DNA from: Escherichia coli
Lineage (GTDB): Bacteria; Pseudomonadota; Gammaproteobacteria; Enterobacterales; Enterobacteriaceae
Length of the DNA stretch: 64,000 nucleotides
Assembly (NCBI RefSeq): GCF_003790525.1
Contig: NZ_CP033635.1
Strand: one strand, 5' to 3'
Part shown: positions 38,378 through 46,521 of the stretch, piece after piece
Numbering within the stretch: the first letter of the stretch is position 1
Layout: the number at the start of each line of letters is the position of its first letter
Notes under the pieces: generated by a model
Databases searched by the model: none
The model's input: the letters and a program-made list of their open reading frames with translations, nothing else
Told to the model about the DNA's origin: nothing
Made by a program: the position numbers and the translations under genes

Positions 38378-39208
38378 ATGTCTATGCCATTAAGCAATGC
38401 CGCTAATAACCAATTCAATACAAATAATCACTTCCTTCATCACCCAAGAGTCGACAATAAGTTAACACGTGAATATGAATATGCACGCATGGATACGGAA
38501 AATATCTATATTATGCCTCTTGTTCGTGGCAATAACCATAATTACGATGGAAAAAGTGTTGTCGAAATTAGAAAACTTAATATTAGCAAACAGTCCTGGC
38601 CATTTAATTATGTGACAGAAACATGCAGAGAATTCAATGGTATTACAACAACAGGACGTATGCTCTATCGAAACTTGAAAATCACCTCAGCTTTAGACGA
38701 AATATATGGTGGTATATGTAAAAAGGCGCATGCTGCCACAGAGTTAGCGGAAGGATTACAACTAAATTTATTTATGAAGAGCCCCTCCGATCCTGTAGAG
38801 GACTATACTGTGCATGAAATAACATTAGGCCCTGGCTGCAATGTTCCTGGTTATGCCGGAACCACGATAGGATATATTTCAACCCTTCCAGCTTCTCAGG
38901 CAAAAAGATGGACCAATGAACAGCCAAGGATTGATATCTATATTGATCAGATAATGACGGTAACAGGGGTAGCAAATTCTTCCGGATTCGCCGTTGCCGC
39001 ATTACTTAATGCTAATATTGAGATGGGAAATGACCCAATAATTGGTATAGAAGCCTATCCCGGTACCGCGGAGATCCATGCAAAAATGGGATATAAAATT
39101 ATCCCCGGTGATGAAGATGCGCCACTCAAACGCATGACTCTGCAACCGTCATCTCTTCCAGAACTGTTTGAATTAAAAAATGGTGAATGGAATTATATTG
39201 GTAAATGA
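38378..39208 (+). CDS. yjiC: Uncharacterised protein YjiC
   Basis: 276 aa; size and position match K-12 yjiC. Confidence 0.75.
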   Translation: MSMPLSNAANNQFNTNNHFLHHPRVDNKLTREYEYARMDTENIYIMPLVRGNNHNYDGKSVVEIRKLNISKQSWPFNYVTETCREFNGITTTGRMLYRNLKITSALDEIYGGICKKAHAATELAEGLQLNLFMKSPSDPVEDYTVHEITLGPGCNVPGYAGTTIGYISTLPASQAKRWTNEQPRIDIYIDQIMTVTGVANSSGFAVAALLNANIEMGNDPIIGIEAYPGTAEIHAKMGYKIIPGDEDAPLKRMTLQPSSLPELFELKNGEWNYIGK

Positions 39209-39348
39209 CTACTGAGAAGAATGAGTACTAACATTCAGGTTATACAGATATTTAAACAATACCCTGCAATTTACAAAGTAATACTCATTGCGATTTCTTA
39301 ATTTAAGAAAGCGCAAGGAACGTTTACCCTTGCGCTTATCATAATAAG

Positions 39349-40122
39349 TCAGGCGTCGACTTTATCCAGCGGCCATGAATCAAACAGATAGCCGTCAAAA
39401 TAAATATCGTCAACGTTCGAAAATTCCAGCAGACGTTGTTTAACGTTTTCCAGATGCTGCCACATTGCCAGCTTCGCCGCTCGGGCATCTTTTTTGATTA
39501 ACGCGGCGAGGATCTGTTTGTGATCGCCCAACCACTCTTTGCGATACAGGCTGTCATCCAGATGGCTGTGCAACTGGATCCACATCGGATTGTTTTCCCG
39601 CCACTGCCAGGACTGACGGAATAGCTCCACCAGCATGCTGTTATGCGTCGCTTCGGCAATGGCGAGATGGAACTGCATGTCACCACTTTCGCTGCTGCCC
39701 GGCGCGCTGGAAGCAAGCTCACGCTCTTCCAGTTGCAATGCCTGACGCATTTTGACGATATCTTCGCGGGTAGCCTGCAAAGCGGCAAATTCCGCGATGT
39801 TACTTTCCAGTAACTGACGCGCCTGTAACAGCTCAAAAGGACCCGCATCATTGCAAACGTTGGCATCCGGACCGTCTGTGTTCTGGCTGTCTGAGCTATC
39901 AAGAACATAAATACCGGCACCCCGGCGCACTTCCACCAGCCCTTTGATCTCCAGCATGATCAGCGCTTCACGTACCACCGTCCGCGTGACATCAAGCATT
40001 TCTGCAATTTCACGCTCCGGCGGCAGCCGTTCGCCAGGATTGTACGGCGTCTTTATGATCAGATCGCGGATCATCGCCCCGACTTCCTGGTAAGGTCTTT
40101 GCGCAGAGGTGACAGATTTCAT
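39349..40122 (-). CDS. uxuR: GntR/FadR-family repressor UxuR
   Basis: 257 aa from ATG 40122 (the track ORF runs further upstream through a repeat element); N-terminal HTH and FCD domain. Confidence 0.9.
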   Translation of the reverse strand: MKSVTSAQRPYQEVGAMIRDLIIKTPYNPGERLPPEREIAEMLDVTRTVVREALIMLEIKGLVEVRRGAGIYVLDSSDSQNTDGPDANVCNDAGPFELLQARQLLESNIAEFAALQATREDIVKMRQALQLEERELASSAPGSSESGDMQFHLAIAEATHNSMLVELFRQSWQWRENNPMWIQLHSHLDDSLYRKEWLGDHKQILAALIKKDARAAKLAMWQHLENVKQRLLEFSNVDDIYFDGYLFDSWPLDKVDA

Positions 40123-40175
40123 AAGTAATATCCATTTGATGAGACTGATAACAAATCCTGTAAAGGGCACGTTCA

Positions 40176-40216
40176 GTCCCCTCGCCCCTTTGGGGAGAGG
40201 GTTAGGATGAGGGGAA
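40176..40216. repeat. GC-rich imperfect-palindrome intergenic repeat (possibly boxC-type), copy 1
   Basis: GTCCCCTCGCCCCTTTGGGGAGAGGGTTAGGATGAGGGGAA; a near-identical copy occurs at 44920-44960. Confidence 0.5.
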
Positions 40217-40444
40217 ATGACTGTAGCCATTACCCTGCCCTATTGCCTTCCTGGACTGGGGAGAAAAACAGTGACTGAATCGCTCATAAACAGGTTTGTC
40301 AGCAATCTGGTTAGATGCGGTTATTTATTTTCAAACTATACCATTAGCACTGGAAGTTGGCACGTACAGGTGGGCAAAAAAACGAAAACTGGTCAACCAA
40401 ATATCAGTTTGATTGACCAGTAAGTCTGTAGGGTAATCAGTTAG

Positions 40445-41905
40445 TTACAGCGCAGCCACACACTCGCGCGCACCGCGTTCGCACAGCTGCTGATATGCCG
40501 CCGTCACCGCGCCAACAAAGTCGGCATTCTGCGGCAGATCATCGGCAAAAATACCGCTCAGGCCCAGCAGCGCTTTCACGCGGTCTGCGCCCTGATACTG
40601 CGCGTTGATCTTCTGGAACTCCACCAGCATCGGGTCGACCACGTCAATGGCATTACCCTGCTCATCCACGCCCTGGGTGTAACGCATCCAGCCAGCCACG
40701 CCCAGCGCCAGGTGACGCCAGCTGCCGCCGTTTTGCAGGTGCAGACGCACCGGATCCAGCAGACGCTGCGGTAACTTCTGGCTGCCGTCCATTGCAATCT
40801 GCCAGGTACGGTGACGCAGAGACGGGTTGCTGAAACGCTCGATCAGCAGCGTCGCATAGGCGTTCAGGTCCGTACCTTCCGGCATCGACAGCGTTGGCGC
40901 TTGTTCCTGCATCATCAGGGCAAAGGCCGCTTTGCGATAATCCGGGTTAGTCATGGTGTCGGCAATGGTTTCATAGCCGCCGAGGTAACCGAGGTACGCC
41001 AGGAAAGAGTGGCTGCCGTTCAGCATACGCAGTTTCATCATTTCGAACGGCACAACGTCTGCAACGAACTGTGCGCCCACTTTATCCCAGTCCGGACGAC
41101 CATTAACGAAGTTATCTTCAATCACCCACTGACGGAACGGTTCGCAGGCAATGGCGCACGGGTCGTAAACACCCAGCTGGTCAGCAATTTCCTGTAAGGT
41201 TTCTGGCGTCGCCGCCGGAACGATGCGGTCAACCATGGTGCACGGGAAGGTGACGTTCTCTTCAATCCATGCCGCCAGCTGTGGATCACGCGCCTGAGCC
41301 AGCCCCAGAACCGCGACCTTCGCCACATGACCGTTTTCACGCACGTTGTCGCAGGACATCACCGTAAACGCTTTCAGCCCTTTTTCACGACGCAGACGCA
41401 GGGCTTCTACGATGTAACCAATCGCGGACTTCGGCGCAGTCGGGTTTTCCAGATCGTGCTTAATCAGCGGATTATTGAGATCCAGCTGACCGCTTGCCGC
41501 ATCGGCGCAATAACCTTTCTCTGTGACCGTCAGGGAGACAATCGCCGTCTGCGGACGCGCCATCGCGTTGAGAATACCTTCACAACCGTCGATTTCCGGG
41601 TGCAGGGCTTCTTTCATCGAACCGATAATTTTCAGCTCGGTGCTTTCTGCGCCTTTTTCCGCCACGGTGTACAGCAGTTGCTGTTTTTTCAGGTTTTCGA
41701 TCAGCACGCGGTCGTTACCTGGCATCAGGTTAACTTCGCAGATACCCCAGTCGCTGTCGGTGCTTTCCAGCAGATGATGGGTGTACAGCGCCTGGTGCGC
41801 GCGGTGAAACGCCCCGCAACCGAGATGCACAATGCGTGATTCCAGACGAGAATGATCCCATGACGGGCGGGCAACCGGCAGATTGCTGTCAACAATAGTA
41901 GTCAT
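40445..41905 (-). CDS. uxuB: D-mannonate oxidoreductase UxuB
   Basis: 486 aa, mannitol dehydrogenase family; downstream of uxuA. Confidence 0.9.
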   Translation of the reverse strand: MTTIVDSNLPVARPSWDHSRLESRIVHLGCGAFHRAHQALYTHHLLESTDSDWGICEVNLMPGNDRVLIENLKKQQLLYTVAEKGAESTELKIIGSMKEALHPEIDGCEGILNAMARPQTAIVSLTVTEKGYCADAASGQLDLNNPLIKHDLENPTAPKSAIGYIVEALRLRREKGLKAFTVMSCDNVRENGHVAKVAVLGLAQARDPQLAAWIEENVTFPCTMVDRIVPAATPETLQEIADQLGVYDPCAIACEPFRQWVIEDNFVNGRPDWDKVGAQFVADVVPFEMMKLRMLNGSHSFLAYLGYLGGYETIADTMTNPDYRKAAFALMMQEQAPTLSMPEGTDLNAYATLLIERFSNPSLRHRTWQIAMDGSQKLPQRLLDPVRLHLQNGGSWRHLALGVAGWMRYTQGVDEQGNAIDVVDPMLVEFQKINAQYQGADRVKALLGLSGIFADDLPQNADFVGAVTAAYQQLCERGARECVAAL

Positions 41906-41985
41906 CGTAAACTCCAGAATCCGTCTTCAGAGAGTGACGGCAAGGAAGAAGGAACCGGCACGGCGCGCAGCCATGCCGGTGGATA

Positions 41986-43170
41986 TTAACGGCTAAAGAA
42001 AGCGCGCTGGATCGCCAGTTCGACACCGCGAACTTCGGCCAGGCCTTTCAGACGACCAATTGCGGAGTAACCTGGGTTGGTTTTCTTCTTCAGGTCGTCC
42101 AGCATCTGATGACCGTGGTCCGGACGCATCGGGATCAGGTCTTCTTTGCCTTCCGCTTTACGACGGTGTTCTTCTTCAACAATCGCTTTCACCACTTCGT
42201 ACATATCAACGTCACCGTTCAGGTGCGCCGCTTCGTGGAAGGTTTTCGGGTTATCTTCACGCATGGTGGAGCGCAGATGGGTGAAGTAAATACGCGGACC
42301 AAACTGCTTGATCATATCAACCAGATCGTTGTCAGCACGCACGCCGTAGGAACCGGTGCACATGGTGAAACCGTTCGCCATGCTGTTTACGGTATCAACC
42401 ATCCACTGCATATCTTCAATGGTAGAAACAATGCGCGGCAGGCCGAGGATTGGGCGCGGCGGATCGTCCGGGTGAACCGCCATACGCACGCCAACTTCTT
42501 CAGCAACTGGAATAATCGCTTTCAGGAAGACAGCAAAGTTTTCGCGCAGTTTGGCTTTGTCGATATCTTTGTACAGCTCCAGGTGCTTACGGAACTGGTC
42601 GAGGGTATACCCTTCTTCCGCACCTGGCAGACCGGCAATGATGTTACGGGTCAGACGCGCTTTGTCTTCGTCGCTCATAGTGGCGAAGCGTTCAGCGGCC
42701 TGAGCAATTTCTTCTTCGGTGTAATCCGCTTCCGCGCCTGGACGCTTCAGGATATGCATTTCGAATGCAGCGAATTCGATCTGGTCGAAGCGCAGAGCTT
42801 TGGAGCCGTCTGGCAGCACGTATTCGAGGTCAGTACGGGTCCAGTCGAGCACCGGCATGAAGTTGTAGCACACGGTGCGAATGCCGCACTGCGCCAGGTT
42901 GCGCAGGGTCTGCTGATAGTTAGCAATCCACTGCTCATAGTTGCCAGTGTGGGTTTTGATATCTTCGTGAATTGGTACGCTTTCAACGACAGACCACACC
43001 AGGCCTGCGTCTTCAACGATCGCCTTGCGTTTGAGGATCTCTTCTACGGACCATACTTCGCCGTTCGGGATATGGTGCAGCGCGGTAACCACGCCAGTTG
43101 CGCCCGCCTGACGGACATCAGCTAAAGAAACCGGATCGTTTGGGCCGTACCAGCGCCAGGTCTGTTCCAT
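41986..43170 (-). CDS. uxuA: Mannonate dehydratase UxuA
   Basis: 394 aa from ATG 43170 (AGAGGA upstream); begins [16 protein letters not shown]. Confidence 0.9.
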
Positions 43171-43336
43171 GATTTTTCCTCTTTCACATAGTGGGTTCCA
43201 CAGCAAAGAGACGTGGAGCCCCGGAGTTGTTTAGGTATCCGGATGAACAACCAGACCGCAGCCGTGGCGTTGCATCGGATGAGATGGCGTATAAGTTCTA
43301 CCTTTTGGTAAGACATGTCAACCCGAATTCTAAAAT

Positions 43337-43346
43337 TGGTTAACCA
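43337..43346. promoter_or_regulatory. Candidate UxuR/ExuR-type operator (perfect palindrome TGGTTAACCA) in the uxuA/gntP divergent region
   Basis: 10 bp perfect palindrome within AAATTGGTTAACCACAT, midway between the divergent uxuA and gntP starts; FadR-subfamily operators are short palindromes of this type. Confidence 0.4.
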
Positions 43347-43509
43347 CATCACAAGAATTTCACTCTCATGGTTGTTGCTGCAAATTGCAGCAAAGAGTAA
43401 TCGATGGTTATTGATCAGAGGATGTGACATTCATCGCAACAATGGTTGACCAATTTACATAACATGTCGCCCAAAATAACAACGGTTCAACCAGGTAAGG
43501 TAAAACGTT

Positions 43510-44853
43510 ATGCATGTGCTTAACATTCTCTGGGTGGTATTCGGCATTGGTCTGATGCTGGTACTGAATTTGAAGTTCAAAATCAATTCAATGGTGGCTT
43601 TGTTGGTGGCGGCGCTGTCCGTCGGGATGCTGGCGGGCATGGATTTGATGTCGCTGCTGCACACCATGAAAGCGGGCTTCGGCAACACGCTGGGGGAACT
43701 GGCTATCATCGTGGTGTTCGGTGCGGTCATCGGTAAATTGATGGTCGACTCCGGCGCGGCTCACCAGATAGCACATACGCTGCTGGCGCGTCTCGGTCTG
43801 CGCTATGTACAGCTGTCGGTGATTATCATCGGCCTGATTTTCGGTCTGGCGATGTTTTATGAAGTGGCCTTTATCATGTTAGCGCCGCTGGTTATTGTTA
43901 TTGCCGCCGAAGCTAAAATTCCGTTCCTGAAACTGGCGATCCCGGCAGTAGCAGCTGCCACTACAGCACATTCACTGTTCCCACCGCAGCCGGGTCCGGT
44001 GGCGCTGGTGAATGCTTATGGCGCGGATATGGGGATGGTTTATATCTATGGCGTACTGGTGACGATCCCAAGTGTAATCTGCGCAGGTCTGATCCTGCCG
44101 AAGTTCCTCGGCAATCTTGAGCGCCCAACGCCATCATTCCTGAAAGCAGATCAACCGGTAGATATGAATAATCTGCCCTCTTTCGGCGTTTCGATTCTGG
44201 TGCCGCTGATCCCAGCGATCATTATGATCTCCACCACCATCGCCAATATCTGGCTGGTAAAAGATACCCCTGCCTGGGAAGTGGTTAACTTTATCGGTTC
44301 CTCGCCGATTGCAATGTTTATTGCGATGGTGGTTGCATTCGTACTCTTTGGCACCGCGCGTGGTCATGACATGCAGTGGGTGATGAACGCTTTTGAAAGC
44401 GCGGTGAAGAGTATTGCAATGGTGATTCTGATCATCGGTGCGGGTGGCGTGCTGAAGCAGACCATCATCGACACCGGCATTGGCGACACCATCGGCATGT
44501 TGATGTCCCACGGCAATATCTCGCCCTACATCATGGCATGGCTGATCACTGTGCTAATTCGTCTGGCGACGGGTCAGGGTGTCGTTTCGGCGATGACCGC
44601 CGCCGGGATTATCAGTGCTGCAATCCTTGATCCAGCAACCGGTCAGCTGGTTGGCGTGAATCCGGCGCTGCTGGTACTGGCGACGGCTGCGGGTTCCAAC
44701 ACCCTCACCCACATTAATGATGCCTCATTCTGGCTGTTCAAAGGTTACTTTGACCTGTCGGTAAAAGACACGTTGAAAACCTGGGGACTGCTGGAGCTGG
44801 TCAACTCCGTGGTTGGGCTGATTATTGTGTTGATTATTAGCATGGTAGCGTAA
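43510..44853 (+). CDS. gntP: Fructuronate/gluconate-family transporter GntP
   Basis: 447 aa, GntP permease family; position matches K-12. Confidence 0.9.
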
Positions 44854-44864
44854 AAGAACACCGG

Positions 44865-44884
44865 AGCCTGCCAATGGCAGGCTC
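44865..44884 (+). terminator. Stem-loop after gntP
   Basis: AGCCTGCC - AATG - GGCAGGCT hairpin 12 nt after the gntP stop. Confidence 0.45.
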
Positions 44885-44919
44885 TGACTGATGACAAAGT
44901 CTAAAAATGTGCCCGGCCA

Positions 44920-44960
44920 GTCCCCTCGCTCCTCCGGGGAGAGGGTTAGGGTGAGGGGAA
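44920..44960. repeat. GC-rich imperfect-palindrome intergenic repeat, copy 2
   Basis: GTCCCCTCGCTCCTCCGGGGAGAGGGTTAGGGTGAGGGGAA; near-identical to 40176-40216. Confidence 0.5.
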
Positions 44961-44987
44961 CAGACCAGCAAAGTGCGCTTTGTTTAT

Positions 44988-45023
44988 GCCAGATGCGACG
45001 CTGACGCGTCTTATCTGGCCTAC
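44988..45023. repeat. REP (BIME-type) element
   Basis: GCCAGATGCGACGCTGACGCGTCTTATCTGGCCTAC matches the REP consensus pattern (GCC(G/T)GATGCG ... CTTATC(C/A)GGCCTAC). Confidence 0.6.
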
Positions 45024-45095
45024 AAAGGGCTAACGTGCAGGTTTTTAGCTTCAGGTAATATTGCGTACCAGCATTAGCAATGTCCTGTGATTTCT

Positions 45096-45998
45096 TTATT
45101 GATAAACAAAAGTCACGCCAATAATCGATTGCACATTCCCTGCAGTCACCTGCCCTCCGGTACGTGCGTAATTTGCCGTTAATCCCAGACTTACCGCCGA
45201 AGTCCCTACTGCTCCTAACGATACCGTGTTATTCGCTGGAATAATCGTACCGTTGCGCGTCAACTGTACGCCGACGCCCTGCGCGGGTGAAAACGAGGCG
45301 GTATTGGTGAAAATCGAGTTGCCCGCATCTGCGGTTGTGCCGGAGAGGTAATACCCCAGGTTTTGGCTTTTCGCACAATAAACGGTAAGAGGAATCGGCA
45401 CTGAACCAGGGTAGTCCGGCAGAGTAACGGTGACATCACGAGCAGAAACATCGCAGCCGCCAGTGGGCACCACCACATCATTATTGGCGTAAATATTCCA
45501 CACAAACTGAAAATCATCGCTGTTATAATTGTTGGTCTGTCGCAAAATAAGCACGGCAATTAATGAACCAGCTTTAATCGCCACCCCGCCCGCACTGCTC
45601 ACAGGCGTCAAATAAAGCGCCACCGGCCACGGCTTATCCGTTCTCGAATTATAAACAACGCGCGGCGTTTCACTGGTGGTCGGAAATGGATAGCTACTGC
45701 CACTATATTTTACGGTCCCGGAAAAATTAGATAACACGCCGCCATAAGCCGAACCTCGTTGCAGTGTGACATAGTCTGTAATGGTTTCCGGGTAATCGTT
45801 ATGGCAAAAGATTTGCGTCGAAAGATCTACGACCAGGTTTTGCCCCACATTCACGGCAGGCGCAAGGTTTACATAAACATTGGCGCTGCCACCGCCAATA
45901 GGGATTGCGGTACCATTGGCGGTTTTACAGGCGAATGACCAGGCATTTACCGACCAGCCCATCAGCAGTACAGCAAACAGGGTAATAACTCTTTTCAT
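45096..45998 (-). CDS. fimH: Type 1 fimbrial adhesin FimH
   Basis: 300 aa from ATG 45998; mature N-terminus FACKTANGTAIPIGGGSANVYVNLAP, lectin and pilin domains. Confidence 0.9.
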   Translation of the reverse strand: MKRVITLFAVLLMGWSVNAWSFACKTANGTAIPIGGGSANVYVNLAPAVNVGQNLVVDLSTQIFCHNDYPETITDYVTLQRGSAYGGVLSNFSGTVKYSGSSYPFPTTSETPRVVYNSRTDKPWPVALYLTPVSSAGGVAIKAGSLIAVLILRQTNNYNSDDFQFVWNIYANNDVVVPTGGCDVSARDVTVTLPDYPGSVPIPLTVYCAKSQNLGYYLSGTTADAGNSIFTNTASFSPAQGVGVQLTRNGTIIPANNTVSLGAVGTSAVSLGLTANYARTGGQVTAGNVQSIIGVTFVYQ

Positions 45999-46017
45999 TA
46001 CAATCATCTCTTTGGGT

Positions 46018-46521
46018 TCAGCTGTAGGTATAGGTGATGCTAATCACTGCCTGAATGGTTCCCTGAGTGGCTCCGCCATTTACCGTCAATGCTCTGACCT
46101 GTAACGGGAAGTGCGCTGATTGTGAGGAATCATCCACCTGCACTGTTTTGGTTGCGCCAGTATTCAATGTGTTGCCACTGTCATCCTGTAGCTCTAACTG
46201 GATGTTTTGCGCGGTCCCCTGGTTTTTATAATATCCGGTACTGTCGGCTGCCCCGCTGAAGCTGGCAGTGACCCTCGACGTTCCCACCGGACAATGAGTC
46301 AACTCAAGCGCAACATCATGCCAGGCCGATGCCGCACCGGCAGACACGAGACTGAAAGAATAAAGATCGCCGAGATCAATCGTGGCATTGGTGGTGGAAA
46401 CTGTGCACGGTTTGGCGACGACCTTACCGTTCACCGTGATGGTGACATCGGCTGCCTGTATCGTCGCACTTGCGAACGCCAACATTGCCGCCAATAAATA
46501 CCCACGTTTGCGCCATTTCAT
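46018..46521 (-). CDS. fimG: Type 1 fimbrial minor subunit FimG
   Basis: 167 aa from ATG 46521. Confidence 0.9.
   Translation of the reverse strand: MKWRKRGYLLAAMLAFASATIQAADVTITVNGKVVAKPCTVSTTNATIDLGDLYSFSLVSAGAASAWHDVALELTHCPVGTSRVTASFSGAADSTGYYKNQGTAQNIQLELQDDSGNTLNTGATKTVQVDDSSQSAHFPLQVRALTVNGGATQGTIQAVISITYTYS

Follow-up and report, generated by a model that had tools for sequence, protein, structure and literature searches.

The two GC-rich repeats that bracket the uxuAB-gntP block in this stretch of Escherichia coli DNA are members of BoxC, an enterobacterial family of intergenic repeats that is already known and has long been catalogued in E. coli. BoxC is the same element as PIT (potential intrastrand triplex; Hoyne and Maher), TMECO (Holder et al. 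2015) and the putative quadruplex-hairpin motifs HPG1/HPG2 (Kaplan et al. 2016), the TMECO motif having been equated with BoxC and PIT in its own description (PMC4666352). Taken together, the BoxC identity of both repeats, their origin as passengers and their subsequent fate provide the best explanation, to which a probability of about 0.72 is assigned. We know of no function for BoxC, thirty years past its first description.

Two BoxC copies around uxuAB-gntP

Within the window, i.e., the whole 64-kb stretch of DNA analysed, positions 39000-46200 are 100% identical to E. coli SMS-3-5. The gene layout given here is that of the SMS-3-5 annotation, with coordinates converted to the window, and each core string was seen exactly at the positions listed.

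38378-39208, plus strand: yjiC (SMS-3-5 annotation)
39349-40122, minus strand: uxuR (SMS-3-5 annotation)
40176-40216, plus strand: core of copy 1, GTCCCCTCGCCCCTTTGGGGAGAGGGTTAGGATGAGGGGAA
40445-41905, minus strand: uxuB (SMS-3-5 annotation)
41986-43170, minus strand: uxuA (SMS-3-5 annotation)
43510-44853, plus strand: gntP (SMS-3-5 annotation)
44920-44960, plus strand: core of copy 2, GTCCCCTCGCTCCTCCGGGGAGAGGGTTAGGGTGAGGGGAA
about 44985-45022, strand not given: REP adjoining copy 2 (sequence; partial Rfam naRNA4 match at 44987-45019)
45096-45998, minus strand: fimH (SMS-3-5 annotation)

An earlier note on this DNA had reported two near-identical 41-base copies on either side of uxuAB-gntP, with a REP element next to the second. 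Both strings were found exactly where it had located them, as were the differences between them, and the geometry agrees with the SMS-3-5 annotation and the sequence. The copies are identical at 37 of 41 positions (mismatches at positions 11, 15, 16, and 32), the longest exact run common to both being 15 bases; they are spaced 4744 bases apart and, as both lie on the plus strand, constitute direct repeats. Copy 1 is intergenic, in the spacer that separates the end of uxuB from the start of uxuR, and stops 54 bases short of the uxuR start codon, on its upstream side. Copy 2 is likewise intergenic, between the convergent genes gntP and fimH, and starts 67 bases past the gntP stop. A search of the 64 kb with a 20-base core pattern, allowing up to 3 mismatches, returned these two places as sole matches, and the same pattern gave 0 matches in 100 dinucleotide-preserving shuffles of the window. 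When 39000-46000 was scanned against Rfam with E-values up to 10, no family matched copy 1 or copy 2. The REP-derived RNA model naRNA4 matched the neighbouring REP at 44987-45019 and not the repeat (a partial match, E 0.016, under the gathering score), so that the copies do not belong to REP/BIME.

The strict TMECO consensus is CCCTCNCCC N3-6 GGGNGAGGG N3 GGGNGAGGG, with 23 copies listed in K-12 (PMC4666352). This strict pattern found no match anywhere in the window because each copy is one substitution off consensus: block 3 of copy 1 reads GGATGAGGG in place of GGGNGAGGG (G-to-A), and block 1 of copy 2, the pyrimidine block, reads CCCTCGCTC (C-to-T). Membership in BoxC is therefore based on homology, as measured by a family profile, and on orthology. 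The profile (nhmmer) drew on 15 further E. coli copies and left out both window copies; it matched the copy 1 region at 40135-40235 (E 6.7e-23) and the copy 2 region at 44874-44966 (E 9.3e-22), with no third significant match within the 64-kb window. Alignment to the catalogued consensus, which places each copy a single base away, stands alongside a profile match in both cases. Moreover, copy 2 aligns base for base, with one core position differing, to TMECO no. 23 of K-12 (CCCTCGCCCCTCCGGGGAGAGGGTTAGGGTGAGGGG, 4,549,883-4,549,848, type A with mismatch; PMC4666352), and the K-12 locus between fimH and gntP where that element sits is also HPGQ 52 (PMC5100583). The boxC assignment that the earlier note had offered tentatively was right, copy 2 being orthologous to a listed K-12 element and both copies being strong family-profile matches. 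"Mutated" copies also occur at known TMECO loci (Holder et al., PMC4666352).

Like the published BoxC/PIT/TMECO/HPG elements, the window copies have a core in three parts, TTA as second loop (type A) and a mismatch at the centre ("mm" subtype), and they are intergenic and belong to a multi-copy set. The variability of their loci from strain to strain agrees with the association already published (PMC4666352). They differ by one substitution each, which places them outside the strict pattern. The original K-12 GenBank record annotated 33 BoxC elements of 51-59 bp (PMC5172473). By BLAST, 15-17 BoxC places were found in SMS-3-5, and the median across 5425 E. coli genomes was 17-18 per genome, with extremes from 1-2 up to 32-33 places; only 2-6 were found in B2 strains such as SE15, ST131, APEC O1, and S88. 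The copy-number spread observed here agrees with the 1 to 29 strict motifs per strain reported by Holder et al. (PMC4666352).

Anatomy of the units and their transcriptional setting

In the core, the C-rich block CCCTCGCCCC is separated by a short loop from one G-rich block, GGGGAGAGGG, and TTA forms the loop between the latter and another G-rich block, GGGTGAGGGG. The second loop is TTA in both copies, which makes them BoxC type A, and the C-rich block is complementary to either G-rich block with one mismatch or one wobble. The description of the repeat as palindromic in the earlier note thus holds insofar as the C-rich block can pair with each of the two G-rich blocks, but the core is tripartite and its palindromy partial. 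Similarly, the 41-base core is real, but the likeness between the copies runs about 34 bases further to the left. The elements outside the cores are the following.

40143-40175, plus strand: left arm of copy 1, GACTGATAACAAATCCTGTAAAGGGCACGTTCA, collinear with the left arm of copy 2
40229-40273, plus strand: decayed inverted type-B partner of copy 1, tail to tail with it, by alignment to the alx-sstT type-B partner
44886-44919, plus strand: left arm of copy 2, GACTGATGACAAAGTCTAAAAATGTGCCCGGCCA, collinear with the left arm of copy 1
44961-44970, plus strand: short right arm of copy 2, family motif AACAG(G)CCAGCA, which begins at 44959

The left arms are collinear over about 34 bases and about 70% identical, a score reached by 2 of 2000 shuffles; comparison of the right flanks of the two copies revealed no likeness. 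As this arm is common to both copies, the repeated unit measures about 85 bases. The left arm recurs in the paralogs at alx-sstT, rluF-yjbD, lptG-yjgR, yihR-yihS, and fepB-entC, and partly at pstB-pstA, and the remaining K-12 single copies retain only about 15 core-proximal arm bases, of the form GCGCAC..(N)..GTC. In genomes without copy 2, the best BLAST match of a 93-base query covers query positions 7-91, equivalent to window 44886-44970, and hence runs exactly from the start of the left arm to the short right arm of copy 2. On the right of copy 1, the segment 40229-40273 aligns, at a score of 15 that 1 of 1000 shuffles reaches, to the type-B member that is inverted in the alx-sstT pair. 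Judged from this alignment, copy 1 is the type-A half of a decayed tail-to-tail A/B inverted pair spanning 40143-40273 (about 130 bases). Copy 2 is a single unit, likewise in K-12. Neither PMC4666352 nor PMC5100583 describes the arms on the flanks, the decayed partner next to copy 1 or the rare locus between uxuB and uxuR. A hammerhead ribozyme, noticed by eye as CTGATGA in the left arm, was considered and rejected, since the motif varies from copy to copy (ACTGATAA, CATTGTTGA, GCTGATGT) and neither helix II nor GAAA follows CTGATGA.

The transcriptional setting was examined by consensus scans only. A strong terminator-like hairpin of uxuB was detected from 40421 to 40388 on the minus strand, followed by a promoter-like site with an extended -10 at 40363-40335 (minus strand), so that copy 1 probably lies in the uxuR leader, of about 200 bases. 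A literature search returned no usable mapped uxuR promoter, and the leader placement comes from these consensus scans only. The 40388-40421 hairpin ACTGGTCAATCAAACTGATATTTGGTTGACCAGT is a long palindrome with TGGT...ACCA half-sites, and its loop holds the sole two differences among the haplotypes that carry the BoxC spacer. Two reading frames overlap or adjoin copy 1. The frame 39349-40230 (minus strand) has an upstream in-frame ATG at 40230 and runs through copy 1 for a total of 293 residues, adding 36 residues (MATVISPHPNPLPKGARG...) to the RefSeq form of UxuR (257 residues, start at 40122); the repeat happens to be open in this frame, and the extra residues are probably an artefact of that. 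On the plus strand, a 68-residue ORF at 40217-40423, antisense to the uxuB-uxuR spacer, has its ATG directly after copy 1 and is preceded by the ribosome-binding-site-like GAGGGGAA, formed by the last bases of copy 1; this ORF is probably spurious.

Terminator-like hairpins were also flagged by the scanning tool directly at the outer ends of left arms.

44864-44884 of the window, minus strand: terminator-like hairpin GAGCCTGCCATTGGCAGGCTC then CGGTGTTCTT, next to the left arm of copy 2 and one base past its outer end
280-298 of locus L127, minus strand: arm-abutting terminator-like hairpin
286-301 of locus L128, minus strand: arm-abutting terminator-like hairpin

The first of these is the probable fim operon terminator and, as it lies beyond the arm of copy 2, the fim transcript would pass the REP and copy 2 before terminating. 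The arrangement of arm end and terminator hairpin was flagged at copy 2, alx-sstT, and rluF-yjbD; that is, three of eight E. coli units with a full left arm, a set that includes pstB-pstA, which retains only about two-thirds of the arm, had a flagged terminator-like hairpin on the opposite strand, 0-3 bases from the outer end of the arm. No terminator was flagged at the arm end of lptG-yjgR or yihR-yihS, where adjoining hairpins were seen by eye only. Terminator-like sites within the arm itself were flagged at alx-sstT and rluF-yjbD, and none within the arm of either window copy. The adjacency of arm and terminator may reflect an insertion-site preference, or mere survival in 3' untranslated regions.

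Distribution among strains and across bacteria

At gntP-fimH, two alleles were distinguished. The long allele carries about 83 bases comprising arm, core and tail, and is present in the window, K-12, and strain 74-2. The short allele, found in E. coli C, O157:H7, and strain E1, has at the same place 14 bases, GTTCGGATTGTCGG. The left boundary of the length difference is the start of the family arm. By identity class, copy 2 (the long allele) was found in about 2850 records and paralog-level matches only in about 2600, and an evenly spaced sample of rows contained 21 long and 18 short alleles. The short allele might be a deletion derivative, as its 14 bases resemble by eye the core-proximal bases of the arm. 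Variation was also observed in the adjoining gene: in 7 of 39 evenly sampled chromosomal rows, the match begins only some 105-110 bases ahead of the gntP stop, and strain 74-2 (positions 5550-6093 of locus L141) has an internal gntP deletion that leaves an annotated 3' stub of 93 bases, with uxuA intact and fimH truncated by IS1.

At uxuB-uxuR, the allele with copy 1 was present in 37 of 5426 complete E. coli genomes, more than 99% being without it; copy 1 is a lineage-specific member of the family. The other sampled genomes have the K-12 form of the spacer, in which a REP takes the place of copy 1 and the length is reduced by 108 bases. The exact UxuR protein of the window was found at nine places, and all nine share a 322-base spacer with an identical repeat pair, differing from the window by at most 2 bases, both outside the repeat. 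Compared with K-12 in bins of 200 bases, identity amounts to 94-98.5% for uxuR and to 98.5-99.5% for the adjoining end of uxuB. This dip in identity fits a haplotype imported by recombination, short of proof. The REP in the K-12 spacer (positions 6472-6554 of locus L002; nearly all E. coli) has a near-perfect direct repeat, TTTGAGATTAAC ... TTTGATTAAC, on both sides. At the corresponding site of the window, 40300-40335, the REP is absent and TTTGAAAATAAATAAC is there. The spacer thus contains a REP in one haplotype and the BoxC pair in the other, at different positions.

Outside E. coli, an exact search with the 36-base type-A core, using one genome per species, returned at least 120 stretches. 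As identity of the core across species follows from the exact search itself, the informative features are the multiple copies and their lineage-specific context. Among the matches listed were Pseudomonas, Stutzerimonas, many Enterobacteriaceae, Devosia, Asticcacaulis, Azospirillum, and Methylophaga, together with metagenome-assembled genomes labelled Chloroflexota, Anaerolineae, Candidatus Kuenenia, and Candidatus Troglogloeales, and an AT-rich rumen bacterium (the label of a metagenome bin). The flanks of the core were conserved within each lineage and different between lineages, and inverted pairs made up most copies, again among the matches listed. Previously, the motif had been reported in Proteobacteria (Holder et al., PMC4666352). 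In the Pseudomonas element, of about 190 bases, a type-B-like core in inverted orientation is followed by some 85 conserved central bases (GGAAAGGGAGCCGATCTTCATGCTTTTC..CCTGAGTTCGACTCGA..TTTCAGGTCGATGTA..) and then by a type-A core; this architecture is MITE- or REPIN-like, with the two cores as inverted termini. No transposase, RAYT-like or other, was found between widely spaced inverted cores at Pseudomonas loci, which contained only repeat-derived spurious ORFs and degenerate tandem units. Carriage by plasmids was also considered: 499 plasmid records match the core, and both of those inspected proved to be non-mobilizable records with chromosomal-type neighbourhoods, which lends plasmid carriage no support. 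Only 5 phage records match the core. Among phage sequences, the 174-kb Campylobacter phage records MG065686.1 and MG065691.1 have three near-perfect BoxC cores each; this is unexpected for the host and could be due to contamination or chimeric assembly.

Alternative explanations, origin and significance

The ability of BoxC DNA to fold has been the main subject of earlier work. In the triplex model, the C block pairs with one G block and the other G block lies in the groove, all within a single strand; by CD and NMR in vitro, the intrastrand purine-motif triplex of the consensus oligonucleotides is very stable and turns into duplex once the complementary strand is added, and in vivo DMS footprinting revealed no protection and no evidence of a stable triplex (Holder et al., PMC4666352). 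In both window copies, the triplex should be weakened, given that the substitution of copy 1 falls in the third strand and that of copy 2 would make a T-G pair in the duplex. An alternative fold has the four G runs as a quadruplex in potassium (PMC5100583). Folding predictions restricted to Watson-Crick pairs gave both alternative hairpins (the C block with either G block) with modest energies (z of -0.1 to -1.8 relative to composition-matched shuffles).

Kaplan et al. (2016) proposed that such elements act as DNA switches between quadruplex, hairpin and duplex that control neighbouring operons. Their ion-dependent CD changes in vitro are consistent with a quadruplex-hairpin switch (PMC5100583), loop sequences are conserved, and copy 2 fits the G3+ quadruplex pattern (HPG1: four runs of at least 3 G, with loops of 1-7 bases) at 44936-44958, the sole such motif in the 64 kb. 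However, copy 1 fails this pattern because its third run is broken (GGA), many strains are without the element at these loci, and NMR of the full oligonucleotide favoured triplex over quadruplex (Holder et al., PMC4666352); a switch of this kind is accordingly judged to be quite improbable here. The copies could instead act as RNA, the earlier note having mentioned mRNA-stabilising hairpins, with the GC-rich hairpin in the fim 3' UTR (copy 2) or in the uxuR leader (copy 1) protecting mRNA from 3' exonucleases, modulating translation, or yielding a 3'-UTR-derived small RNA. Some REP elements do protect mRNA from 3' exonucleases or modulate translation. The positions described above are in line with such a role, as copy 2 lies between fimH and a minus-strand terminator-like hairpin, copy 1 is downstream of the uxuB terminator-like and extended -10 promoter-like sites and upstream of the uxuR ATG, and three units abut terminator hairpins. 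Nevertheless, E. coli copies are not oriented consistently with respect to the neighbouring genes (gene tables; also PMC4666352), and copy 2 is missing from about half of the E. coli genomes and copy 1 from more than 99%. Earlier tests, in addition, revealed polymerase blockage in vitro and no promoter, terminator or conjugation effect (cited in PMC4666352, where the lack of promoter or terminator activity is credited to Hoyne and Maher), which also speaks against RNA elements. We consider a role in RNA rather unlikely.

Two further readings concern the block that the copies enclose. The earlier note had suggested that the repeats are recombination substrates, and direct copies 4.7 kb apart, belonging to a family associated with variable regions (Holder et al., PMC4666352), could in principle serve as homologous substrates for deleting or mobilising uxuAB-gntP. 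Against this, the cores match over an exact run of 15 bases at most, their arms are about 70% identical, genomes with truncated gntP retain uxuA and uxuB and have their breakpoints inside gntP and not at the repeats, and K-12 has the same block with one copy only. RecA-dependent exchange needs roughly 20-30 bases of exact homology, of which the 15-base run falls short. With the gntP deletions of other genomes ending elsewhere, the suggestion was abandoned as highly improbable. The location of the copies on either side of uxuAB-gntP is also all that argues for operators, i.e., regulon-specific sites for UxuR or ExuR bracketing the hexuronate genes. To our knowledge, the repeat sequence bears no resemblance to a GntR-type palindromic operator. 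Besides, BoxC units occur at many unrelated loci and in many species, and copy 1 is missing in more than 99% of E. coli, nearly all of which have the K-12-type uxuB-uxuR spacer, so that this reading is barely credible.

In the favoured explanation, that of BoxC passengers, the units would be REP/BIME-like non-autonomous repeats that enter or leave intergenic DNA whole, a single unit measuring some 85 bases and an A/B inverted pair some 130. Gain or loss as whole units is suggested because the boundary of the length difference at gntP-fimH coincides with the boundary of the family unit. Units would persist where their insertion does little harm, as with copy 2 in the fim 3' region just before the terminator and copy 1 probably in the uxuR leader. 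Both copies would by now be near-neutral passengers that drift and decay within the lineage, each substitution weakening one of the three blocks, and their main consequence would be local insertion/deletion polymorphism between strains. They would have no role specific to the uxu/gntP regulon; no tie to hexuronate regulation is suggested because paralogs occupy unrelated loci (alx-sstT, rluF-yjbD, lptG-yjgR, adk-hemH, pstB-pstA, and others).

BoxC resembles REP/BIME in being short, structured and intergenic. In both, two subtypes often form inverted pairs joined by characteristic linkers, the repeats lie in 3' untranslated regions or where genes converge, and strains are polymorphic for them; the two kinds also meet by position, a REP adjoining copy 2 and occupying the position of copy 1 in K-12. 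BoxC differs from REP/BIME in that its sequence is unrelated, no RAYT-type transposase is linked to it, and its core recurs in identical form in distant phyla, whereas a REP is specific to its lineage. With MITEs, BoxC shares its small size, non-coding nature and multiple copies, but neither a target-site duplication nor a parent insertion sequence was found. Indeed, no target-site duplication was detected at the gntP-fimH or uxuB-uxuR junctions, nor a clean empty site, the short gntP-fimH allele having 14 bases of its own.

For the window, the outcome is that two BoxC units should be annotated and that the frame 39349-40230 (minus strand) should not be taken as a longer uxuR. For the family, the defined arms, an indel boundary that coincides with the arm start, and the several units abutting terminator hairpins provide handles on how BoxC spreads. 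That very distant bacteria have exactly the same core is hard to reconcile with pure neutrality and hints at a conserved partner or active spreading. On a more speculative reading, which we regard as unlikely, a structure-recognising single-stranded-DNA mechanism would place BoxC units site-specifically at the base of intrinsic-terminator hairpins, with the 36-base core as the recognition structure for a widespread protein of the host or of a mobile element and the arms as lineage-specific cargo. If this were true, BoxC would be an active, cross-phylum class of non-autonomous elements, and not a passive "unstable triplex motif".
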